Source: a bacterium
GTDB taxonomy: Bacteria > Patescibacteriota > Minisyncoccia > Phycocordibacterales > UBA12088
NCBI GenBank assembly: GCA_003252295.1
Contig: QKEV01000011.1
Span: 7,127-71,126 of the forward strand
Reading direction: 5' to 3'
Length of the DNA stretch: 64,000 bases
Shown: positions 24,646 to 64,000 of the stretch, in pieces
Numbering within the stretch: position 1 is the first letter of the stretch
Layout of the letters: every line of letters begins with the position of its first letter
Notes under the pieces: model-generated
Database searches by the model: none
What the model saw: only the letters and a program-made list of their open reading frames with translations
Told to the model about the DNA's origin: nothing
Position numbers and translations under genes: made by a program

Positions 24646-25914
24646 CTACTCCCTCATTCTTCTCGCACGCCTCTTCTTGTGGAATGACAAAGCGAATCGA
24701 TGTGCCTCGCTATTTGCGAGCAGGATATCGTTCTGGTACCTATTTTTAACCTTGAGAGGTCCCTGAAGGTTTCGTGGTCGATGATGCTTATCCTTTGTAA
24801 CTGCAACAAGCGGTATGACCACACCTGCTTTTTTACAAACACGCTCAGCAACATTCATCTGCGCCTTACCACCATCAAGTACCATGAGTTTTGGATACTG
24901 CCACTCAGGGTGAGCTAAACGTCGTTCAAGCAGTTCCTCAAGTGCACCCGTGTCACTTCCTGAAGCAGCATCTCGAATAGTAAATGTTCTGTACTCACTC
25001 TTTTCCATCACACCACCATCAACAACCACCATAACACCCACCGTATCTGTACCACCGAGGTGTGCCACGTCATACGCTTCAACACGATACCCAGCACCTG
25101 AACGTAACGGTACATCTCGTTTTAGAAGTGACACATCCTCTATGTGTTGCAACGCAAAGAGTTGACGCTTTACCGTTGCTGCTTCTTCGAAACGTTCCTC
25201 TCGCGCAAGTTTATGCATGTCACGTTCAAGTGTGCGGAGTAGTGTCTTGAGCTTCCCATCAAAGATGGTTTTTAGGTAGCGCACCGTACGTGCGTACTCT
25301 TTCTGTGTTACATCTCCTCTTGGAAACACGCCAATTGATTCATTAAAGAGTAGTTTTCTATCATACTTTTCACGAAGCATCTGTACCGGTTCTTTTGTAT
25401 CGTAGTATGGAAAAATTTTTCGTAGCAACTTAAGTGCCTCCTTGAACTGACCAGCATGTGGAAACGGTCCATACACTAGTGGATCTTTATACCTCTTTCG
25501 CTCCCCCTGATACAAACGTTTAAGCTGTGCCAAAGTGATGGTTAGATCTTTACCACGTACCGTCAATAACCGTGGGTATACCTCATGTATTGTTATAACA
25601 AGATGGTTAAAACTTTTATCATCCTTATCTCGCACGTTGTACGGCGGCTTAAACTCCTTTATGAGCTTCGCTTCAAGAATGAGTGCTTCGAGCACAGAAT
25701 CAGTTGTACGAAAATCAACTCTCTCTGCCCGCTCTACCATACGAACGATTTGTACACCACGTGAAGCAAGTACATTTTTACCAAAGTAGCTTCGCACACG
25801 ACTCTTAAGCGACGTTGCTTTTCCAACGTAAAGCAGTTCACTCTTTTTTCCGAGAAAGAGGTACACTCCAGAGCAATCCGGAAGTGCCTGTATACTTGCG
25901 TGAGTAATCTCCAT
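24646..25914 (-). CDS. uvrC: Excinuclease ABC subunit C, short form (no C-terminal helix-hairpin-helix)
   Basis: GIY-YIG (GVYLFLG...LLYVGKATSLKSRVRSYF), a UvrB-interacting region and an RNase H-like endonuclease segment. 422 aa. Confidence 0.8.
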   Translation of the reverse strand: MEITHASIQALPDCSGVYLFLGKKSELLYVGKATSLKSRVRSYFGKNVLASRGVQIVRMVERAERVDFRTTDSVLEALILEAKLIKEFKPPYNVRDKDDKSFNHLVITIHEVYPRLLTVRGKDLTITLAQLKRLYQGERKRYKDPLVYGPFPHAGQFKEALKLLRKIFPYYDTKEPVQMLREKYDRKLLFNESIGVFPRGDVTQKEYARTVRYLKTIFDGKLKTLLRTLERDMHKLAREERFEEAATVKRQLFALQHIEDVSLLKRDVPLRSGAGYRVEAYDVAHLGGTDTVGVMVVVDGGVMEKSEYRTFTIRDAASGSDTGALEELLERRLAHPEWQYPKLMVLDGGKAQMNVAERVCKKAGVVIPLVAVTKDKHHRPRNLQGPLKVKNRYQNDILLANSEAHRFALSFHKKRRARRMRE

Positions 25915-44558: not shown

Positions 44559-45875
44559 CTAGTTCTCGTCAGTTGTGAAGTACTTTGTTGATCCACAAAG
44601 GATTGTATCGTCACCGTCCTCATCTTCAAAACCAACACAAATACTATAGTAGTATCGGGTATCATCATCGAGCCCATCAAGCTCCGCCTCATAGGTACCC
44701 TTTCCATCTAGATCTTTATCAACTCGAATAGCCTGGAAATCATCACCATCTTCATGATCATCTACCTCAGCATATGTATCGTAATCATCCTCAACATCCT
44801 TAACTTGATCTTCATCCGTACCATACACAAAGAACACTTCTCCATTTCTGAAATCGTTCATGTCTACAGTTCCCGTGAAGTCTGCACTGTCATCGGTTAT
44901 GTTACTTGCACTTCGTGTGGTCACATCTGGATACTCATCATCGTTACTATCACCACTATCAGTCACAAATGAGTATATTGTTCCGTACACTTCATCACCG
45001 TCCTCATCTTCTGCTACAGCACGGTAGTAGTAACGTGTGTCGTCATCAAGACCTGATATGGTCTTCTCAAACTCCTCGTCATCATTGTCATCTATCGTAC
45101 TATGACCAGTTTCCTCATCAAGATCGTAACGTGACTCTCCCCAAATAAAGTACACTTCGGCCTCATCATCACCATTGAGGTCAACCTCACCTCGAAGTTT
45201 TGCACTGTCTTCATCAATACTACTTGCTGAACGAGTGTAAACATCAACATCACTATTACTGTTACCACCATCACCATCTGTCACAAATGAGTACATGGCT
45301 CCATACATCACATCACCATCCTCATCTTCTACAGCAGCTTGGTAGTAGTAACGTGTATCTTCATCAAGGTCAGATATACTCTTCTCAAAAAGACCACTGT
45401 CGTTCTCATCAATGGTTATATGCCCTGTCTCTTCATCGAGATTATTTGAAGAGTCACCCCAGATAAAGTACACCTCAACTTCCTCGTCATCATCCAAAAC
45501 AACCTTTCCCTGAAGTGTCGCACTGTCCTCATCTATATCATCAGGCATACGAGTGAATATAGAGATATCACTGTTGTAACCATAGTTGTAGTTATAGTTG
45601 TAGTTATAGTTGCCACTTCGAAACGCCTGAAGTCTCAAACGAAACATTGCAAGCAGGTCATTAAAATCGTTATTACAATCACCAAAACAGTAGTTGTTGA
45701 TCTTTCCATTTTTATACCAACCTAAATGCAATCCATTGTTACCAGATATATTTACGGTCATCTGGTTTGCATTGCTACTTTTTGCTTCTGCAGTTGGTGT
45801 ACTGTAAGCAAAACCTCCCAAAAGGAGTAGTAACGCAAACGTACCAACTGAGGCATTACGTATATAATTTTTCAT
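44559..45875 (-). CDS. Secreted, highly acidic protein with three tandem Fn3-like repeats of about 90 aa
   Basis: Signal peptide. Repeats follow the pattern TRSASxIxxDSAxLxGxVDLN...VYFIWG...ETGHxTID...FEKTISxLDxDTRYYYRAVAEDEDGD..YGxxYSFVTD. Asp/Glu-rich with an NYNYNYNYGYN tract. Confidence 0.7.
   Translation of the reverse strand: MKNYIRNASVGTFALLLLLGGFAYSTPTAEAKSSNANQMTVNISGNNGLHLGWYKNGKINNYCFGDCNNDFNDLLAMFRLRLQAFRSGNYNYNYNYNYGYNSDISIFTRMPDDIDEDSATLQGKVVLDDDEEVEVYFIWGDSSNNLDEETGHITIDENDSGLFEKSISDLDEDTRYYYQAAVEDEDGDVMYGAMYSFVTDGDGGNSNSDVDVYTRSASSIDEDSAKLRGEVDLNGDDEAEVYFIWGESRYDLDEETGHSTIDDNDDEEFEKTISGLDDDTRYYYRAVAEDEDGDEVYGTIYSFVTDSGDSNDDEYPDVTTRSASNITDDSADFTGTVDMNDFRNGEVFFVYGTDEDQVKDVEDDYDTYAEVDDHEDGDDFQAIRVDKDLDGKGTYEAELDGLDDDTRYYYSICVGFEDEDGDDTILCGSTKYFTTDEN
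45583..45612. repeat. 12-nt tandem repeat (TAGTTGTAGTTA, about 2.5 copies) encoding the NYNYNY tract
   Basis: Read directly in the sequence; in-frame within the acidic repeat gene. Confidence 0.7.
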
Positions 45876-49308: not shown

Positions 49309-50505
49309 CTACAAGGTGAGGTAGTTAACCTGCTCACGAATTTTCTTGTATGCAAGAATGTATCCAGCTGCAGAAAAACCGAGTTCAGTGGTTCCTCGAG
49401 GTTCATACGTTTCGCCATGATAGAACTCAGGAAAAATATACATATCTCTCTTCAGGGTGTTAGCAAAACTCTCTAACCGGTACTCAACACTTTCATCATG
49501 ATCAGCAGCACCTGCAAGGAAGAAGCCATGTACGAGCGGCCAGAGTCCACCATTATGAAAACAGTACGGCTTATTTTTAAATTCATAGAGATAGTTATCT
49601 TTGAGGAACACCCACATTGGATCCTGCTCATCTATCACCGGACTAAATGCGGGAAGTATAGGGAGTGTGTCGTTCATACATCGTGAGAAGACGGTGTGCG
49701 TGATGGCAGTTTTCATGTCCTCATCAATAATATCGAGTACCAAGAGTAGTGCATTATCAAAATTTGCCACCCTGTGGTTAAATGCATTATGTGCAGAAAA
49801 GTACGCAATCGGAAGTGGTGGACTGTATGTTTCGAGACTCATTTCAAAGAGCGACTTATTGTATACCCTTGGATGATGTACATGCTTCTTTTGTGGAAAG
49901 TAGTTAACAGCAATAAGCTCACGCAGTACATCTGCACGCTCATCGGTACGCTGGTCATGAGTAAGGAGGTAGTAATTCCGTAGTGCTGTGTAGTACAACA
50001 CTTGGTCAAACAGTACATACGCATGTGTAATGTACTCATCAGCCCAATCACCCCCTTGCGGCACATAGAGCAAACCTCTTCCATTCAACTCAAGACACTC
50101 AAGATAAAACAAAGCTTTCTTTATCTCCTCATGCAGTTCATCAAAAATAAAATGCTCTCCTGTTCTCAGAGTGTATTGACACACACCAATAACAAACCAA
50201 ATAGTGGCATCAACCCTTCCTACTGTTGTACCGTAACTTTTCGTTCCCTCATCAAGTGTCACATTACTCACAATCCGTCCTGTGTGGTCTTGATTTCTTG
50301 CAAGTGTATGCAATGTAGCGAGAAATGTCTGCTTGAGGTCCTCACGTCCAGTTAACATACCAGCAAGACCAGCAATGATACCGTCACGTGACCAAATGCG
50401 CTTATAATTTGCAACATCCTCAAGAGAAGCAACAAACCCTTTTTCAGTTTGCAGGTGAGTAAGTAGATCTATGCTTTTTTCGTACGCTTCTTCAACAACT
50501 GACAT
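49309..50505 (-). CDS. (alpha/alpha)6-barrel glycoside hydrolase-like protein (GH63/GH100-type)
   Basis: Size and Trp/acidic-rich pattern; family assignment uncertain. GGAG SD 5 nt before the ATG at 50505. Confidence 0.5.
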   Translation of the reverse strand: MSVVEEAYEKSIDLLTHLQTEKGFVASLEDVANYKRIWSRDGIIAGLAGMLTGREDLKQTFLATLHTLARNQDHTGRIVSNVTLDEGTKSYGTTVGRVDATIWFVIGVCQYTLRTGEHFIFDELHEEIKKALFYLECLELNGRGLLYVPQGGDWADEYITHAYVLFDQVLYYTALRNYYLLTHDQRTDERADVLRELIAVNYFPQKKHVHHPRVYNKSLFEMSLETYSPPLPIAYFSAHNAFNHRVANFDNALLLVLDIIDEDMKTAITHTVFSRCMNDTLPILPAFSPVIDEQDPMWVFLKDNYLYEFKNKPYCFHNGGLWPLVHGFFLAGAADHDESVEYRLESFANTLKRDMYIFPEFYHGETYEPRGTTELGFSAAGYILAYKKIREQVNYLTL

Positions 50506-50651
50506 GACTCCTATACATACAGTTAAACACATCTTTCGCTTTACCTGCGGAACTTATGCACAAACAATATCACCTTGCATCACATGTACATTTAAGAACT
50601 ATATTTTGCAGATTAGAAACAAATGGTTGTATATAAAAAAAAGGGGGCAAC

Positions 50652-51485
50652 ATGGAACAAACTGTTCAAAAAAATCAAGTTATACTCACATACAACAGGA
50701 TGCTTGGTTTACCAGTAATACACATTTCTCATGAACTTAAGCAAGAAATAAGAGGAGGACTTACAGTACAGTACATACAGCAACTAAGAGAAGAGTACAA
50801 GATACCAAAGAGAATACCGTTCAGTAACCTTACTAGTATAGGATTTGGTTTTAATGACACCTTTACCTGTGGAGACCCAACAGAAACCCATTCACGATAC
50901 CTATTTAGCCCTAAACCAATATGTGCAATCACCTCGCAAACATGCTGTGAATGCAGCAGTATTGACTCAGCTAAGGAGGGTTGCATCTACTGCGAAGGAA
51001 GTGGGAAAAAGCTGCGCAAAGATGCAATGGTCGGACTACGACTTGCAGCAAGTTTACAAGCACTGTTTGACCAAGCTGCAATGTGCTTAAAAGATGTACA
51101 AATACCCTTACATATCACCTTTAGAAAAACGCAAACTGGGTATAATATCAAGGGACATCTCGCTGAACGACTGGTGCGGTACTTTCAAAAACCCATTGAA
51201 CACTACGTATGCAAATGCGTTACGTTCGCAATGAGTAGCATGTACATGAAACTTTGGCAGACATACACTCGTGACTGTCCTACTGCAGAGTCAGTCAAAG
51301 CTTATCAAGAGCATCAAAGCTTTGCACTTACCATTGCAGACAAGAGCATGTTACTGTTTAGTAAACCTACAGCAGATGCTGACATAGTTACATTTGAAAG
51401 CCATGGTGTAAAAACACCACTTGAGCTACTCGTATACTTCAGTGGTCTTGCGATGCTCAGCAACACACTACACTACAACCGTTAA
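50652..51485 (+). CDS. Hypothetical protein with Cys cluster (CCEC...CIYCEGSG)
   Basis: ORF preceded by AAAAGGGGG. Confidence 0.45.
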   Translation: MEQTVQKNQVILTYNRMLGLPVIHISHELKQEIRGGLTVQYIQQLREEYKIPKRIPFSNLTSIGFGFNDTFTCGDPTETHSRYLFSPKPICAITSQTCCECSSIDSAKEGCIYCEGSGKKLRKDAMVGLRLAASLQALFDQAAMCLKDVQIPLHITFRKTQTGYNIKGHLAERLVRYFQKPIEHYVCKCVTFAMSSMYMKLWQTYTRDCPTAESVKAYQEHQSFALTIADKSMLLFSKPTADADIVTFESHGVKTPLELLVYFSGLAMLSNTLHYNR

Positions 51486-52467: not shown

Positions 52468-52953
52468 ATGACTATAAAAGATTTACACGAATTTCGTGAC
52501 CTGATCATAAAATCAAACACACCCGTTTCTGAAGTAGAGTTTACAAAAGACAACTACAATCATGGAGGTAAGCTTATAAAAAAAGGGTTGCCGACCATTA
52601 CAACAGATTTTTGTGAAATGGGACTTTTTAATGATGAAATATACTTTGTTTTTATTATTGAATCAGAAACATTCAGTGTAGGATTATTTGACAATATTAA
52701 AGAAAAATCTGGCATCAACATATACGGCTACACTGATTTTCACACAACGTTTTACCCCAACGAGAACCTCACTCTCAACGAACTCATAGAGAAGGTGCAG
52801 GAAGACAAGTACCTACAAATTCAATTTGACTTTCAAAGTTCTGACCTGACGTACCTTTTTAAAGAGTACACAAACCTCATAAGTATTTTCAAAAAGAACA
52901 AAGCAGTGGTTATAAACCAGCTCACAACAAAGCTGCCAAAGATAATAAAGTAG
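52468..52953 (+). CDS. Hypothetical protein
   Basis: ORF, no motif recognised. Confidence 0.45.
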   Translation: MTIKDLHEFRDLIIKSNTPVSEVEFTKDNYNHGGKLIKKGLPTITTDFCEMGLFNDEIYFVFIIESETFSVGLFDNIKEKSGINIYGYTDFHTTFYPNENLTLNELIEKVQEDKYLQIQFDFQSSDLTYLFKEYTNLISIFKKNKAVVINQLTTKLPKIIK

Positions 52954-52973: not shown

Positions 52974-53864
52974 CTACGCACTGAATTCCTGTTTGATCTT
53001 GTCGTAATCTTTTGTACCTACCAGTTTTATCTTAGAGATAATTTCATTTCGAAATTCTTCGGAAAGATTATGGTTGTTCAATGCATCTACCATTTCAATT
53101 GCATGTACGTATAGTTTGAGCATGGCATCTGCCGTCTCATTATCCACTTGTGGCAACATATCAGCGTTACCTGAAAGGTAGCTCACAATATCACCCGAAC
53201 GATCAGCAACCGCATCGATTACCTTCTTTTGTGCCAGTGGCTTAATAAAACCACTCACGTTCTCTATGAGTTCCTTTGCTTTTGCATTAGTTTCTTTGAT
53301 TATGTGTTTAGCTTGCTCCTGTACCTCAACAGCAGCTCCTTCATTATCCAACCTAACCTGTTCGATAGTATAAGAGGGTTGTGCAAACTGCGACTCTGCA
53401 GCATGACCCTGATCAGCAGCAAATGTCGCTGTTGCAAGCGTGATTGTCAAAAAACTTGCCGCAGCTACAGCAAGTTTTTTGGGAAACAGTAATCTTACTT
53501 TTTCAAGAAACAAACTTGGGTCACCATTTTGCAATGCCCTTTCAACTTCCACTCTTTCAGGTTCCTCTATCCTCAACTCCATGAGAAGCTCCTTGATACC
53601 TCTCTCGGCAGCATCAAAAGTGAGTCTAGTGTACTCACGTAAAACTTCATCTGTAGAAAGTCCCGTCATCTCTTCAAGTCGAGAGAGTTCATCGTTGAGA
53701 GTGTCCATTTCACGTATCGCCTGCTCACGTTCTTTACCTTCTGGCATTTCTTCAACTTGGTAATTTTTCAACTCAAGTTCAAGTGCTTCTTCCTGCATTT
53801 CCCTTTTTAAGTCTGTTTCTTGTTCAGACCCATGTATATGTTGCGGTGTATCTTCTGGACTCAT
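52974..53864 (-). CDS. Hypothetical coiled-coil protein with one TM segment
   Basis: Glu/Leu-rich N-terminus and a central hydrophobic AAASFLTITLATATFAA. Confidence 0.45.
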   Translation of the reverse strand: MSPEDTPQHIHGSEQETDLKREMQEEALELELKNYQVEEMPEGKEREQAIREMDTLNDELSRLEEMTGLSTDEVLREYTRLTFDAAERGIKELLMELRIEEPERVEVERALQNGDPSLFLEKVRLLFPKKLAVAAASFLTITLATATFAADQGHAAESQFAQPSYTIEQVRLDNEGAAVEVQEQAKHIIKETNAKAKELIENVSGFIKPLAQKKVIDAVADRSGDIVSYLSGNADMLPQVDNETADAMLKLYVHAIEMVDALNNHNLSEEFRNEIISKIKLVGTKDYDKIKQEFSA

Positions 53865-57618: not shown

Positions 57619-57894
57619 ATGGCATTTGCTATACTACTAATAATGAGTGTTGCAAAGATACAAACCGGTGTAGTTCATAAGGTGCCGCAAGACCTACGGG
57701 AAGTATTATTGGAAAATACTGATGTCTTAGAGCTATGGAACAACCTAACACCACTTGCCCGCAATGAATGGATCTGTTGGGTTACCATTGTGGTAAAGGA
57801 GGAGACGAGAGAAAAGCACCTCAAGCGACTCTGTGAGGATCTCCGCAAAGGCAAACACCGACCGTGCTGCTGGGCAGGGTGCCCTCATCGGTAA
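57619..57894 (+). CDS. YdeI/OmpD-associated family protein (91 aa)
   Basis: LTPLARNEWICWV...KKEETREKHLKR pattern. The long track ORF from 57382 would overlap the ATPase and was trimmed to the ATG at 57619. Confidence 0.55.
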   Translation: MAFAILLIMSVAKIQTGVVHKVPQDLREVLLENTDVLELWNNLTPLARNEWICWVTIVVKEETREKHLKRLCEDLRKGKHRPCCWAGCPHR

Positions 57895-57923
57895 AAAATA
57901 TAAAGTGTACTAAATTCACAACA

Positions 57924-58700
57924 TCACACACTCATGAGCACCTTTTGATGTTTCTTTGTAAAATCCCATATTTCATGTAGAAAGTCCTCAAAATGCTTAC
58001 CTGATCTTAGATGTTTTTTGTACATTTTTGTGTAATGGGTCACGGGTCGCTTCCCTTCAATGCGAATTTTTTGAAATTGAGTATATGTCCTCTGCTTATC
58101 TTTAAACAATGTTTTGAAGTATGGATGTTCATTGAGGATCACGTCAGTAATTATTTCACTGAGTCTCCACACCAAATGTGGCTCATCCAACTCCTCGTAC
58201 TTTGTTTCAGGAAAAACTTCCATCCATTTTTTGAAATATACAAAATGCAGTATTTCATGACACGTGATTTCCCTTACTCTTCCTGGATTAAAGTAACTCA
58301 CGTTGAATGTCCAGTTATGTAGCCAACGTGGGTACACAGGAACCATGCTCACATAAGCTTTAAGCGTTTTGCGATTACTAGGAAACTTCGTTTCAACATG
58401 TTCACTCAGAGCGGTAAGGAACTTCTTCTCTACTGATTGCCAACCTTTTATGTTCATCCTGAGAGCACTATCAAACTGCTTACTGTTTTGTTTACGATAC
58501 GTATTGGCGTACGCATGACAAATACGCATTCTTTTTTTATCATCAGTCACACCCTCAAGCGCGAGTTTAAGTTCAGGATGACATTGAAAAACAACTTCAG
58601 CCAAGTCGAAACCCACTTCTTGTGGCTCACAAAAATCACACAAAACCCTTGCTTCCTTAGCTACCGAAGGCAACACAAATTCTACTTTTGGTGTAAACAT
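57924..58700 (-). CDS. Hypothetical protein with HExxH motif (possible zinc hydrolase)
   Basis: CHEILHFVYF. Confidence 0.45.
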   Translation of the reverse strand: MFTPKVEFVLPSVAKEARVLCDFCEPQEVGFDLAEVVFQCHPELKLALEGVTDDKKRMRICHAYANTYRKQNSKQFDSALRMNIKGWQSVEKKFLTALSEHVETKFPSNRKTLKAYVSMVPVYPRWLHNWTFNVSYFNPGRVREITCHEILHFVYFKKWMEVFPETKYEELDEPHLVWRLSEIITDVILNEHPYFKTLFKDKQRTYTQFQKIRIEGKRPVTHYTKMYKKHLRSGKHFEDFLHEIWDFTKKHQKVLMSV

Positions 58701-58817
58701 AAAATATAGTATATCACTTAAAAGATTGGTTATTTTTAAAGTGTATATTTTTTAATAACAAGAGCCGCACTGTACTTGCCAGTGCGGCCCAAACATTGAA
58801 CATGTATTAGCTTCTTT

Positions 58818-59093
58818 TTATTGCTTTTTTATTCCATCAGGAAATTTGTTGATAAATTCTACAATCATTGCCTCAACAACACAGACGACTACTTCGTCTA
58901 CACGTACTCCGTGTGTAAATGATAAAGGAACATCCTTAAGTGCATCTGAAATAAAACTTCCGGTCCTTGCGGTATCTCCTCCACCAATGGTCGGAAAAAT
59001 CTCGCCAACCTCTGCAGTGATCTTTGCAATCAAATCTTGAATATCGATCGTTACAGCATTTTTATCATCCATATCACCCATGATATCCTCCAA
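58818..59093 (-). CDS. Hypothetical protein (91 aa) downstream of the ClpX-ZBD gene
   Basis: ORF in an apparent two-gene operon. Confidence 0.4.
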   Translation of the reverse strand: MEDIMGDMDDKNAVTIDIQDLIAKITAEVGEIFPTIGGGDTARTGSFISDALKDVPLSFTHGVRVDEVVVCVVEAMIVEFINKFPDGIKKQ

Positions 59094-59111
59094 TTAATCA
59101 ATAAAATGAGT

Positions 59112-59660
59112 TTACAAAAGTGCACGTTGCCTGGCTTGTAAGGCAAGTAATTTCTCAGATAACTGAGCGCACGTTTCCTTCTTTTCTTGAAGATCAGCGA
59201 TTGCTTGCTCGTGCTCAGTAATCTGAACACATACTGGTGAGGTCTCTGTTAGAGTAGCACCACCCTGTATTGGATACAGCTCATGCTCTATCGCCTCAAT
59301 GCTTGCACGTACAGCAGTTGGAAGTATCTTGACCAATGTAGCGTTCAAGTCTCCAATAAATTCCTGTTCTGACACATCTTCTCTATCATTATTCCTAAGA
59401 ATAAAATCACGAAGATAGTTGAGAAAATTAAAAACACCACTATCAGCGATCATTTGGAGATCACCTGAACCTACTGCAAGGTATCCCAACGTATGCAAAA
59501 GTTCTTCAATATTGTCCTCGTACACAATTCGTACACCGAGAACAATACATTCATTACAAATGTGTACTTCTGGACCTGCAACCAGCTTTTTAACCTCGTC
59601 CTCATTTTTACTACAAAAGCTACACTTTGCTTTTGGGTCTGTATCGCCACTTATGCACAT
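59112..59660 (-). CDS. Stand-alone ClpX-type C4 zinc-binding-domain protein with a C-terminal coiled coil
   Basis: [29 protein letters not shown] closely matches the ClpX N-domain [27 protein letters not shown]. No AAA+ module (182 aa). Confidence 0.65.
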
Positions 59661-59869
59661 TACTCAACCTCCCTGATTAGAATGGATTATTAATTATAAG
59701 CATTACAAGCATCTACCTAATTTCACAGAATGTACTATTTTCTATATTTGTCAACGTTCACTGTGAAAGGGTTCCCCTTTCACAATAAGTATTTCTTTCT
59801 ACGAGTAGATTTAATCTTTTTATCTTGCTACTATATTTTTGTTAGTTCTTTCACATTTTCTCCAGTGAC

Positions 59870-60262
59870 ATGCTCGCAAATTACTGTTGGCAGGTGAACT
59901 GGAGAAAAAACATGGCACATCTTCGGGCAAAGTATTCATCTTGGTCTCCCGATACAAAGGGGGTAAAACAAATTGTTTGGTTTATCGTTTACACTGGCAA
60001 GGATGCTGATCGCTTCGGACCACATCCCAGAGCACATGAAGACGATCAAGCTCTTTTCAAAAAAGACCCTCAAGAATGGGCACACTCCATTCTTAAGAGA
60101 AATGAGCTGCCTTGCAATGCTCGTTTTGCCTTTTTAAACGGACCATTAGGTCCTTCCATTAAGGTAGTGTTTTCAGGAAAAACAACAGAGGGTGAAGACT
60201 ATCAATTACGGAGAAAGATTCTAAACACACTTCGCGAATTTATCTTTGTGTACCATAAGTGA
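59870..60262 (+). CDS. Hypothetical protein
   Basis: ORF; likely start at the internal Met MAHLRAKY. Confidence 0.4.
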   Translation: MLANYCWQVNWRKNMAHLRAKYSSWSPDTKGVKQIVWFIVYTGKDADRFGPHPRAHEDDQALFKKDPQEWAHSILKRNELPCNARFAFLNGPLGPSIKVVFSGKTTEGEDYQLRRKILNTLREFIFVYHK

Positions 60263-60384
60263 GTACCTCAAACCTCACGAAAAATTGCACCTCTGCGTCA
60301 TCAAGCACCGGTGCAATTTTATTTCACAGGATTGTTCATCACATAGTTAGATAAAATTGGAATCAATTGATCCCTGTTACATGA

Positions 60385-61068
60385 CTACTTAATCAACCGA
60401 TCTGTATACCCAAGAGAAACAAGATATTCATACGCTTCCCATACCTCATCAGGAATATCTTGTTCAATTTGAAATCCTTTTGCTGGATATTCTTTAATAC
60501 GCTGCAAATCTCCAATAAGTGCATGAATCCAGTGTTCATTATGACTATTACTTGCATCCTCATACTTTTCAATAGGGATAGGTGGTGATGTAACTATTAG
60601 TTCAATATTTGGCCACCACACTTTACCTGTCGCATAGGTACGACGTTCCATATACGGCTTTTGAACAGCTATTACTGTATTTGGTTCAATATTTTTTTCC
60701 CGCAAAAGCTGTATTGAAAATTCATAGTTTTGACCGGTATTTTGTGATCTGTTTTCAATCAAAATTGCCTCTTCAGGAACACCCATCTTACGTGCAATAT
60801 CCGCAAACACTTCTGCCTCTGTGGAACCGACAAATTGTTCTCTTCCTGGCTTGCTGTTGTGTATACTTCCAGATCCGGCAAAGATGATAATTGGTGCAAG
60901 ACCATCCAAGAACAACTGTGCAGCATGCTCTGCGACACGAGTATCACGACATCCAAGCACGAATATTGCATCTGCTTTTTTCAGTGTATGTTCCATATGC
61001 ATATAGTCCCATATGAGGTTTAGTGCTTTTTCCTTGGTCATTTCCATTTTTTTACTATTTTTCTCCAT
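60385..61068 (-). CDS. DUF218 (YdcF/ElyC/SanA-like) family protein
   Basis: AIFVLGCRD...IIFAGSG pattern. Confidence 0.6.
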   Translation of the reverse strand: MEKNSKKMEMTKEKALNLIWDYMHMEHTLKKADAIFVLGCRDTRVAEHAAQLFLDGLAPIIIFAGSGSIHNSKPGREQFVGSTEAEVFADIARKMGVPEEAILIENRSQNTGQNYEFSIQLLREKNIEPNTVIAVQKPYMERRTYATGKVWWPNIELIVTSPPIPIEKYEDASNSHNEHWIHALIGDLQRIKEYPAKGFQIEQDIPDEVWEAYEYLVSLGYTDRLIK

Positions 61069-61085
61069 ACAAAAATACTACCATG

Positions 61086-61343
61086 AACATACTATGGTAT
61101 GTTCATCGAACCCGGGTTTCGACCGTGAGAGGTGAGAACGTGCCAAAGCACGTTCGTAAAACCTTGTGAGCTATCTTTTTGAACTTGTAAAAAAAAGTAG
61201 CCACAAGGTGTACTGCACCTGTAAGGGGCGGTGAGCAGAGCGAGCACCTTATGGGTGCAGTCCTCTCAGGTCAAACCCGATTCCCTTCCCGTGCGTAGCA
61301 CCTCAAAAACAAAACACCAGTCTTGTACTGGTGTTTTGTTTTT
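61086..61343 (+). ncRNA. Candidate structured non-coding RNA ending in an intrinsic terminator; type undetermined
   Basis: A 370-nt gap free of ORFs on both strands. Several hairpins: ATGAACATAC/GTATGTTCAT, GAACGTGCcaaaGCACGTTC, long-range CCTTGTG/CACAAGG, nested GGTG...CACC helices. It ends in terminator 61306..61343 (AAAACACCAGT cttgt ACTGGTGTTTT plus T-run). tmRNA, RNase P and SRP signature motifs were not found by eye. Confidence 0.3.
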
Positions 61344-61442
61344 GATTTGTGACCCTAGTTAGACAGAATTGGAATCAAATTCTAATTTACTTAACTTTTA
61401 CAATATAAACTATCACATTCATTAAGTGATATAATTTATAGT

Positions 61443-62204
61443 ATGCGAAACAAAAAACTTCATAGGTTGTTTATTGATGAATCTGGTCAACCGCAATATA
61501 GTCATTCCGATAAAAATTTTACATATTGTGGAATAATAGCAAACCCAATTCAATCTGAGTATCTTAAAATTGTTGCTGATCAAATAAAATTTAAATATTG
61601 GAATCGCACCAGCACCGTCTTTCATTCAGTAGATATCGGAAAGAAAAGAAATGATTTTAGTATTTTAAATGATCAAGATACTTATAGTGACTTTAAAACT
61701 GACTTATTTAAATTTTTAAATAACAATAGTTACAGATGTATTATAGTTTCAATTAACAAAGAAAAAGCTAGAACACTTGGATGGAGTGAATTAAAAGTAC
61801 GAAATATTGCAACAGACACTCTCATTGAACTATATATAAAATTTTTACATGAAAAATGTTTCTTGGGTCAAATAATTGCTGAATCATCTAGTTCGGCAGA
61901 TATCAACTTATACAAAAGATATACTTCTTACTTGTCGCAAGGTTGTCCTTCAATGAACTTAAGTCATATAGATTTAAAAAAACAATTAACATCAATTACA
62001 TTCGTTAGTAAAAATAATCATGATATTGAGGCACAGATTGCAGACATATTGGTGTATGCTGGAGTAAAAAAAATCTTAAGTGACGAAGGTTTTTTTAGTC
62101 TTTTGCCTGAAAGTTATGAAGGAAAACTTATAAATATATTAAATACGAAACTCATTAATTTCAAAGATGGTACAAATAGTTTTATTCGATTACCTTTACC
62201 ATAA
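61443..62204 (+). CDS. DUF3800-like protein (N-terminal LFIDESG motif)
   Basis: RLFIDESGQ near the N-terminus. Lies in the A+T-rich segment. Confidence 0.45.
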   Translation: MRNKKLHRLFIDESGQPQYSHSDKNFTYCGIIANPIQSEYLKIVADQIKFKYWNRTSTVFHSVDIGKKRNDFSILNDQDTYSDFKTDLFKFLNNNSYRCIIVSINKEKARTLGWSELKVRNIATDTLIELYIKFLHEKCFLGQIIAESSSSADINLYKRYTSYLSQGCPSMNLSHIDLKKQLTSITFVSKNNHDIEAQIADILVYAGVKKILSDEGFFSLLPESYEGKLINILNTKLINFKDGTNSFIRLPLP

Positions 62205-62369
62205 ACGAAGAAAAAGCGGACTTGCCGCTTTTTCAAAAGAGAGTTTGTAGCTTACGCTTACTTGCTCTCTTATTGGTAATAATGCTATCAAAGATATTAA
62301 CATTTGTCAAGGTTATCCACAGGCACACCTTGACAGGTTTTATACTCAAAAAAAAACCTTTAGAGTAAC

Positions 62370-62918
62370 TCAAACTTGTTTTAGACTTGTTTCTTTTGAT
62401 CTTTTTACAGATTCTCTGTAATCCCAAGGTAGTATAATTCCATATTCTTTTGCAATCCAATCTTGTGACCTAGCGTACAAACGTGCAAGATCTGACTCCT
62501 TACTAGCTTCACAAAATAATAAATACAAAGTTGTTGCGACTATAGTTGAAAAAATTATTGTTATTATAAAATAAATTATTAAGTGTCTTTCTTGATGAAG
62601 TGTTGGAAATATCCCTGTAAGTATTGAATACATAAATACAATAATTGAAATTGTGATCGCCATCCAAGCATGATACGCTTGGGCTTCTTGTTTGTGCATA
62701 GAGGAATTTATTGATAAATAATTATAAATTGAATCAAACATCGCAGGACTTATGCTTCTGTTCTGTATTGAAGAAAGTGTCTTTGGACTTATTCCAACGT
62801 AAATTATTGCTTCTCTGGATATTTCATCAAGACGAGGAATTGTCTTATATTTTTTTTCTAGCTTTTTATAATATTTATCTTCTTCTTTTGAAGCTGTTTT
62901 TTTATCGAAGAACCACAT
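62370..62918 (-). CDS. Protein with a soluble N-domain and two C-terminal TM helices
   Basis: Hydrophobic segments ITISIIVFMYSILTGIF and IIYFIITIIFSTIVATTLYLLF. 25 nt downstream of the 321-aa gene. Confidence 0.45.
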   Translation of the reverse strand: MWFFDKKTASKEEDKYYKKLEKKYKTIPRLDEISREAIIYVGISPKTLSSIQNRSISPAMFDSIYNYLSINSSMHKQEAQAYHAWMAITISIIVFMYSILTGIFPTLHQERHLIIYFIITIIFSTIVATTLYLLFCEASKESDLARLYARSQDWIAKEYGIILPWDYRESVKRSKETSLKQV

Positions 62919-62943
62919 AATTGTAATATTTTGTAATTAATTT

Positions 62944-63909
62944 TTATTTTTTAAGTTTTATATTTGCAACTGACAAAGTTTGTGCTGATAATACAAACAC
63001 TGGATCATTTTTCAATTTGTCCATGAGTTCAAACATGACAATTTTCTGCTCCTCTCCATTGCTCAACAACATTTTTACTACTCCATGTAACATGGAAATT
63101 ATTGAATCTCCTTCCATAAAATTTTTACCAAGAGGTCTTTTGATATTTGAAAACTGTTTTGTTGCTTCAGTGATACCTAATTCTTTTAACTCAGTATCAA
63201 GAGTGTTACGAACCTTAATTTTATTTTTTAGTAACTGATTAACAAAACCGGATTCCCATCTTTCAACCATTTCACTCAAGATATACCAACCCCAAGGCTC
63301 AAACTCAATTTCTTTTATCTTTCCGTCGTTACTTAAATAAATATGTCTTGTAAGTTGTGCTAAATTTCTTCCAATGTCTGCTTTTCCATTTGGATTTACA
63401 AGAACTTTTAACATTCCAAAAGCATACCCTAGTAGCCACAATGGTTTTTGATTGTCGCATTGTTTTTTATGCAACTCTTCAAGTTCTTTAAAATCTGATT
63501 CTTGCATAATCTTTTTTTTCTCTAAGTCCTCCCTGATCAATAGCGTAGTGTTTTCAATCCGATCATCTGTGTCGTCCATATCAAACATTGTGTCATCAAA
63601 GAGATCAAAAAGATTGTCTTTTAACAACTGTTTAAAATATTTGCCACTATTTTCCTTTTTTAAATGTAGCCCTGACGCATATCTTGAAAATGCTGTTTCA
63701 AGTGTTTTTTGCAGTATACGCTTTTCATTAGCTGAACAAATATTTTGCGCCTTTTTCGTACATCTGTAGTATCGGTCTGATAGATGCAACTTATGTCCAC
63801 TCTCAAGGAATACTAATGTTCCCTTTTTGAAATAGGGAATTTTTTTTAGCTTGAATGCAGTTTTATTTTTCATACTTCCACATAAAACATCGCTTGAATA
63901 CGTGACCAA
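62944..63909 (-). CDS. Hypothetical protein (321 aa) in the A+T-rich segment
   Basis: ORF, no motif recognised. Confidence 0.45.
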   Translation of the reverse strand: MVTYSSDVLCGSMKNKTAFKLKKIPYFKKGTLVFLESGHKLHLSDRYYRCTKKAQNICSANEKRILQKTLETAFSRYASGLHLKKENSGKYFKQLLKDNLFDLFDDTMFDMDDTDDRIENTTLLIREDLEKKKIMQESDFKELEELHKKQCDNQKPLWLLGYAFGMLKVLVNPNGKADIGRNLAQLTRHIYLSNDGKIKEIEFEPWGWYILSEMVERWESGFVNQLLKNKIKVRNTLDTELKELGITEATKQFSNIKRPLGKNFMEGDSIISMLHGVVKMLLSNGEEQKIVMFELMDKLKNDPVFVLSAQTLSVANIKLKK

Positions 63910-64000
63910 ATAAGAAAAGCACCTATAAGCGACAAACTCATAATGTACTTTCTATATTAGTTGTCAATTTTCAAGGCGCAGGCGGACTCCTGCTCTCGCC

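Follow-up and report, generated by a model that had tools for sequence, protein, structure and literature searches.

Replication initiators and transposases, lambda O and MuA among them, are targets of the protease ClpXP. The ClpX zinc-binding domain (ZBD) has been studied in isolation: the Escherichia coli ZBD dimerises with itself, a property demonstrated for the E. coli domain only, and it binds LKxh-type docking motifs such as those of SspB and RssB; when the purified ClpX ZBD is supplied in trans at 5-20 μM, RssB-mediated breakdown of sigma-S by ClpXP is inhibited in vitro (PMC7226468). The corresponding Pfam domain, zf-C4_ClpX (PF06689), is also present on cyanobacterial sigma factors (PMC11119718). 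Papers characterising a protein that consists of a ZBD without the rest of ClpX were not found in the literature searched. Here we report on a gene for a protein of this kind, ZBD182, and on its partner gene, p87. Both are located in a stretch of 64,000 nucleotides (hereafter, the window) of a bacterium of the Patescibacteriota lineage UBA12088 (contig QKEV01000011.1 of assembly GCA_003252295.1, positions 7,127 to 71,126 of the forward strand); the coordinates of all features are collected in Table 1. The sequence analysis supports the view that ZBD182 is a stand-alone ZBD protein and not the N-terminal part of a clpX gene interrupted by a frameshift, and the gene pair is probably cargo of an integrated rolling-circle mobile element.

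The initial annotation had described a 182-residue protein, encoded on the minus strand, with an N-terminal match to the C4 zinc finger of ClpX. The profile search bears this out: PF06689 aligns with residues 12-47 of ZBD182 at 57.2 bits (E = 1.6e-15; gathering cutoff, 27 bits), and the alignment covers profile positions 2-38 of 39. The structures matched by the finger in the Protein Data Bank (PDB) are solved ClpX ZBDs, those of Listeria (6sfw, E = 2.4e-9) and E. coli (1ovx and 2ds5-8, about 1e-8). As judged from these comparisons, the match to ClpX ZBDs is far beyond chance. ZBD182 and the ClpX ZBD have in common a C4 treble-clef-type finger with CxxC...CxxC ligands, the KLxAGP core and a helix that follows it. 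The four cysteine ligands of ZBD182 (C13, C16, C35 and C38) are invariant in the finger alignment, the core is retained as KLVAGP, and identity with the fingers of Anaerolineae ClpX proteins reaches 61-65% over 30-31 aligned residues. The two proteins differ in that ZBD182 is devoid of the AAA+ unfoldase, its helix is off the consensus, and its finger is followed by a unique region of 133 residues.

Absence of an AAA+ ATPase had been stated as well, and a frameshifted clpX had been named as the alternative origin of the gene. Both points were addressed with complete ClpX models and sequences. With the two ClpX equivalogs of NCBIfam, ZBD182 reaches 39 and 34 bits, against cutoffs of 359 and 371, and they align with the finger only; the AAA+ module is absent. 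When a full-length ClpX and a ClpP of a canonical locus were compared by tblastn with the six frames of the window, the sole match obtained was to positions 59538-59627. AAA+ sequence is found in no frame of the whole window, nor is there a match to ClpP, and neither clpP nor tig lies near ZBD182, in contrast to canonical tig-clpP-clpX loci. A profile built from seven full-length ClpX sequences gave 47 bits on residues 9-50 and -2.5 bits on residues 50-182. Of the composition-matched shuffles, 352 yielded a score, and 255 of these reached or exceeded the latter value. The few alignments in which similarity to ClpX extends beyond the finger (to residue 75 in a PDB alignment, to residue 94 in record MT839725) correspond to the ClpX linker, and the record that reaches residue 94 is a truncated genuine clpX locus. 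As an apparent phage relative of ZBD182, that record (MT839725.1) was rejected, as was MT838389.1: both are truncated bacterial tig-clpP-clpX fragments mislabelled as phage. Deposited in GenBank as 'Bacteriophage sp.' from human faecal samples, the two entries yield spurious phage matches for ClpX-related queries.

ZBD proteins that lack an AAA+ module occur commonly and have annotations already, and ZBD182 joins a known but uncharacterised class. It fits the stand-alone 'ClpX C4-type zinc finger protein' type in having the finger, in lacking AAA+ and in being short. Three PHROG families of unassigned function (6797, 12435 and 5259) consist of short ZBD proteins, and an open reading frame (ORF) coding for 66 amino acids (aa) of ZBD alone is present on an IMG/VR contig. 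In the P2-like phages PhiR44_2 and P88, the gene that follows just downstream of gpA, the replication gene, codes for 110 aa with a ZBD at the C-terminus (64.7 bits). Of 5,426 complete E. coli genomes, 112 carry this gene, and the RefSeq name of its product is 'ClpX C4-type zinc finger protein'. Marine metagenomes hold a family of stand-alone zf-C4_ClpX proteins of about 78 aa (36-38 bits) that retain KPxEI+K, the post-finger linker motif of ClpX. The marine modules are compact: a Phage_integrase gene is accompanied by small genes of unknown nature and by a gene for DUF6626 (DUF, domain of unknown function) that overlaps the start of the ZBD gene; from their gene content, they look like small integrative elements.

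The genes from P2-like phages, PHROG families, marine modules and IMG/VR resemble ZBD182 in combining a ZBD without AAA+, small size, a location on phages or integrative elements (for ZBD182, a probable one) and an unassigned function. They are unlike ZBD182 in that their products, of 66-110 aa, contain little beyond the finger and have nothing in common with it outside the finger. Furthermore, the P2-like proteins carry the finger at the C-terminus, the marine ones keep the ClpX linker motif, and the neighbours gpA and DUF6626 differ from those of ZBD182. Kinship of ZBD182 to a described ZBD subfamily was not found outside the finger, the PHROG matches covering residues 9-51 only. In an exhaustive HMMER search with ZBD182 against 1.84 billion cluster representatives, which returned 6,265 matches at E<=0.001, the best-scoring relatives are proteins of 90-300 aa with ClpX-type fingers in tandem, separated by short linkers; two, three and four fingers are present in 121, 11 and 15, respectively, of the best 149 matches. 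These proteins share with ZBD182 the use of the domain outside ClpX, while ZBD182 joins a single finger to a non-finger domain. We know of no described function for the tandem architecture.

The region after the finger is an orphan. In a collection of 5.8 billion proteins, the 133 C-terminal residues retrieve nothing but ZBD182 itself at E<=10, and the full-length protein likewise retrieves only itself. Among the best 149 non-self HMMER matches of the 6,265, which are skewed to multi-finger proteins, no relative of the C-terminal region was found, all alignments being confined to query residues 2-75 or thereabouts; relatives of the C-terminal region alone with E values of about 3e-10 to 1e-3 could be missed there, a gap that the search of 5.8 billion proteins partly closes within the limits of its word index. 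Neither Pfam, NCBIfam, PADLOC, PHROG nor PDB gave a match outside the finger, and the region shows no similarity to any of the stand-alone ZBD proteins or loci retrieved. A single-sequence AlphaFold2 (AF2) model of ZBD182 is all-helical at low confidence (predicted local distance difference test, pLDDT, of 42.6). The coiled coil with which the protein had been said to end was not upheld: hydrophobic periodicity at 3.5 residues (heptad) in the tail is not above that of shuffled sequences (p about 0.2), and a helix is seen there only in the low-confidence model.

ZBD182 and p87 have the layout that is consistent with the two-gene operon proposed in the initial annotation. This description stands because the gap between the genes is of 30 nt, the terminator scan detected no minus-strand terminator within it, and a terminator-like hairpin follows the second gene. 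The downstream protein had been given as acidic and of 91 aa; it is indeed acidic, but its length is likely 87 aa, with the ATG at 59081 as start. This ATG is preferred because it is preceded by GGAGG at 5 nt, because the TTG that would yield 91 aa falls inside that Shine-Dalgarno sequence, and because NCBI and JGI use the 87-aa form (the Logan record has 84 aa). The guanine-plus-cytosine (GC) content at the three codon positions is 0.57/0.34/0.32 for ZBD182, a typical coding pattern, and 0.55/0.33/0.28 for p87. At E<=10, p87 retrieves only itself from the collection of 5.8 billion proteins, and it has no family or structure match in Pfam, NCBIfam, PADLOC, PHROG or PDB; its single-sequence AF2 model is all-helical and poor (pLDDT 54.3). 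One LKxh-type motif, LKDV, is present at residues 48-51 of p87. As support for docking it is weak evidence and a lead only. Upstream of the operon, no complete sigma-70 promoter match was obtained on the minus strand; isolated TTGACA and TATAAT hexamers occur at incompatible spacing only. The perfect inverted repeat in the divergent intergenic region abuts, on its upstream side, a TTGACA hexamer (59754-59749) and is possibly an operator or a bidirectional hairpin.

The exact ZBD182 protein is recorded in NCBI, JGI and Logan, and the independently recovered copies of the pair are 100% identical. ZBD182 and p87 occur in one genome and in one Logan contig, the latter present in two samples; genome, viral and metagenome scans returned no second copy of the pair.

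The pair lies near a change in gene content and base composition. The left 57 kb of the window are chromosomal, with dnaK, umuC-like, uvrC-like, uvrA, uvrB, ftsZ and P-type ATPase genes. At about 57.9 kb the GC content, 0.47-0.51 before this point, drops to 0.38-0.40 and farther on to about 0.30 (range within the segment, 0.27-0.41), and from there to the end of the window all genes are orphans or island-type DUF genes. The GC content of the pair itself (0.39-0.41) is just slightly under the window average. A Logan contig of 7,100 bp, from an independent assembly, is 100% identical to window positions 57807-64000 and extends 907 bp further, into a Rep gene. The encoded protein (contig positions 11-847) is a rolling-circle Rep of the HUH type, which matches PF23343 at 78.3 bits and has the HFH and YxxKY (YLSKYMAK) motifs. 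Reps of small plasmids from Brevibacillus, Geobacillus and Bacillus share 28-36% identity with it, and its more distant kin are initiators of microviruses and inoviruses; the plasmids that bear the related Firmicutes Reps are of 1.5-8 kb. The Logan contig ends 10 nt past the Rep stop codon and, at its other side, about 90 bp inside a chromosomal OmdA-like gene. The right end of the Rep-bearing segment is outside the sequence examined. It is this position, where the chromosome gives way to a low-GC orphan segment with a Rep gene at its end, that makes the pair probable mobile-element cargo. Neither this setting nor the commonness of ZBD-only proteins had been part of the initial annotation.

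An adaptor, an anti-adaptor decoy or a regulator had been proposed as the function of the isolated ZBD, and this is a reasonable idea. We put forward tentatively, as the best of the readings considered but one that falls well short of probable, that ZBD182 could be a ZBD decoy which competes with host ClpX for the docking of adaptors or substrates. The analogy is drawn from the isolated E. coli ZBD, which dimerises, binds docking motifs and inhibits in trans (PMC7226468). ZBD182 would then be a mobile-element mimic of the N-terminal docking domain of ClpX. It would dimerise as the isolated E. coli ZBD does. Its targets would be the short XB/LKxh-type docking motifs of adaptors of ClpX, or of substrates that depend on the ZBD; as a decoy or anti-adaptor, it would keep these adaptors or substrates from host ClpXP by titration. 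Some of the substrates of ClpXP would be stabilised in this way, plausibly the replication or regulatory proteins of the element itself. Specificity or regulation would come from p87 and from the orphan C-terminal region, for instance by masking or positioning the finger. The probable location on a mobile element gives such a decoy a rationale, and the recurrence of ZBD-only genes on mobile elements (P2-like phages, marine modules, IMG/VR and PHROGs) hints at a function that is open to selection and linked to ClpX of the host. The anti-adaptors of ClpXP that act on RssB, IraD, IraM and IraP, have the same outcome as that proposed for ZBD182, blocked delivery by the adaptor. In contrast, the Ira proteins bind RssB through unrelated folds without mimicry of the ZBD, and no sequence relation to ZBD182 was detected. 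Beyond the finger, neither ZBD182 nor p87 has any Pfam or NCBIfam match at E<=1, those to the known adaptor and anti-adaptor families of ClpXP (SspB, RssB, IraD/IraM/IraP, RcdA, CpdR, YjbH) included.

Several observations weigh against the decoy proposal. The post-finger helix of ZBD182 reads VLGVRIV where the ClpX consensus is D/E-LC-N/Q-D/E-II (for example, DLCNDII), a divergence that could alter dimerisation or peptide binding. Since ZBD182 and p87 are both singletons, no conservation or co-variation backs a function. Chance alone would place a motif of the LKDV type in about one in ten proteins as long as p87, the zf-C4_ClpX domain is found on proteins without a known link to ClpXP, and the clpX and adaptor genes of the host lie outside the window. 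The mobile-element status itself is read from the Rep gene, the GC content and the orphan genes; an integrase, an att repeat or a circular junction was not found, and the Logan contig has neither terminal overlap nor flanking repeats.

It is also possible, and again only tentatively so, that the finger is a generic zinc-ribbon module for dimerisation or protein binding, and that ZBD182 and p87 form a small regulator of the element, acting for example on replication or on the divergent promoter, without any link to ClpXP. The reuse of zf-C4_ClpX on sigma factors, in tandem proteins of two to four fingers and in many short proteins fits with this, as do the divergence of the post-finger helix from ClpX and the perfect palindrome in the promoter region. 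However, domains for DNA binding or for regulation of another kind are not detected by Pfam and NCBIfam, the acidity of both proteins (pI 4.4-4.6) would be uncommon in proteins that bind DNA, and the ZBD182 finger is as near to real ClpX fingers (61-65%) as these are among themselves.

Rather unlikely is a third reading, according to which the pair is drifting cargo, functionless or lineage-specific, that arose when a captured 5' fragment of clpX was fused to random sequence which is open by chance. The pair is a singleton among about 15 billion proteins and its AF2 models are of low confidence, as such cargo might be; nevertheless, both ORFs are intact, each is preceded by a strong Shine-Dalgarno sequence, and there is a terminator; these features, together with GC at the codon positions as in coding sequence, a finger fully intact at 57 bits and the complete identity of the independently recovered copies, are points against this reading.

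ZBD182 might instead be an adaptor, its finger pairing with that of ClpX or its tail docking on ClpX, and its C-terminal region delivering a cargo (p87 or another protein of host or element) to ClpXP. ZBDs do dimerise (PMC7226468). A layout of docking module plus unique module resembles the logic of adaptors, and a candidate partner, p87, is encoded in the same putative transcription unit. We nevertheless consider this unlikely. Dimerisation of the ClpX ZBD is regarded as constitutive, and exchange with a foreign finger is for that reason doubtful; in addition, none of the known adaptor families shows similarity to the pair.

It is very improbable that the pair is a toxin-antitoxin or anti-phage defence module, with the finger coupling the turnover of one partner to ClpXP: PADLOC gave 0 matches, Pfam and NCBIfam detect no toxin or antitoxin domain, the lone match to an antitoxin PHROG has E=0.85, and both proteins are acidic where a basic toxin and an acidic antitoxin are typical. 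In its favour are the compactness of the two-gene operon, its place on what is probably a mobile element, and the DUF3800 and other island-type genes nearby. Finally, descent from a full-length clpX that a frameshift or decay has reduced to its N-terminal part, for which the finger itself and the few ClpX alignments reaching slightly past it could be invoked, is effectively refuted, being contradicted by the tblastn search in all frames, which finds nothing past the finger, and by the shuffle-like profile score of the C-terminal region, with no clpP or tig nearby.

Table 1. Features of the ZBD182/p87 locus and of related ZBD genes. Positions are those of the window unless a phage or metagenome locus is named.
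Feature	Position	Strand	Description	Basis
ZBD182 coding sequence (stand-alone ZBD protein)	59112..59660	minus	182 aa; ATG start, TAA stop; pI 4.6	ORF list
ClpX-type C4 zinc finger of ZBD182, residues 12-47	59520..59627	minus	CSFC...CNEC ligands; KLVAGP core	
Orphan C-terminal region of ZBD182, residues 50-182 (133 residues)	59115..59513	minus	Acidic; predicted all-helical; Leu-rich terminal helix	
Shine-Dalgarno sequence of ZBD182, GGGAGG	59668..59673	minus	7 nt 5' of the ATG	Read from sequence
p87 coding sequence (acidic partner, orphan)	58818..59081	minus	87 aa; pI 4.4; three predicted helices	ORF list
Shine-Dalgarno sequence of p87, GGAGG	59087..59091	minus	5 nt 5' of the ATG; alternative TTG start at 59093 overlaps	Read from sequence
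Intrinsic-terminator-like hairpin	58762..58790	minus	11 pairs (8 G-C); T-rich tail; 28 nt past the p87 stop	Terminator scan
Perfect 9-bp inverted repeat, TGTGAAAGG-N5-CCTTTCACA	59762..59784	unstranded	Divergent intergenic region between the 116-aa gene and the ZBD182 gene	
Low-GC segment with orphan and DUF genes	57900..64000	unstranded	p258, ZBD182/p87 pair, p116, DUF218, DUF3800, membrane protein, p321	
ZBD gene of P2-like Escherichia phage PhiR44_2	2309-2641 of phage locus L009			
Marine 78-aa ZBD genes, examples	5427-5663 of L026; 2781-3017 of L028		Family loci L014-L019 and L025-L031	

Other genes of the window deserve mention. Directly downstream of the pair, past the terminator, a minus-strand gene (57924-58700) codes for p258, a basic orphan of 258 aa with a metalloprotease-like HEILH (HExxH) motif; it has no match in Pfam, NCBIfam, PHROG, PADLOC or PDB. 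In the chromosomal part, the uvrC-like ORF next to uvrA (24646-25914, minus strand) codes for 422 aa, and its best match covers the N-terminal 230-245 or so of the 570-650 positions of UvrC models; the product is a shortened or atypical UvrC or Cho-like nuclease. Between 41000 and 54000, the ORFs at 44559-45875, 49309-50532, 50652-51485, 52468-52953 and 52974-53864 have no match in Pfam or NCBIfam. Sizeable chromosomal ORFs of this kind suggest a poorly sampled lineage.

The ZBD182 instance leads to a question on the class as a whole, whether free ZBDs manipulate ClpXP, which is more interesting than the instance alone. ZBD-only genes could represent a widespread and unrecognised strategy of mobile elements, in which adaptors or ZBD-dependent substrates are titrated or ClpX N-domains are poisoned, with protection of the replication or regulatory proteins of the element as the result; in ZBD182, retargeting or gating of such a decoy would fall to its unique helical domain and to p87. 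We regard this broader idea as doubtful at present. The ZBD182 locus, a singleton with an unreadable C-terminal domain, cannot establish it by itself, and better experimental entry points are the P2-like E. coli prophage gene, as a tractable model of the class, and the family of 78 aa from marine metagenomes. The proteins under control of ClpXP include replication initiators, transposases, stress sigma factors and antitoxins, and this control operates largely via docking at the ZBD. If it is true that mobile elements routinely carry free ZBDs to disturb this docking, it would be a simple, general and unstudied mechanism of host takeover.

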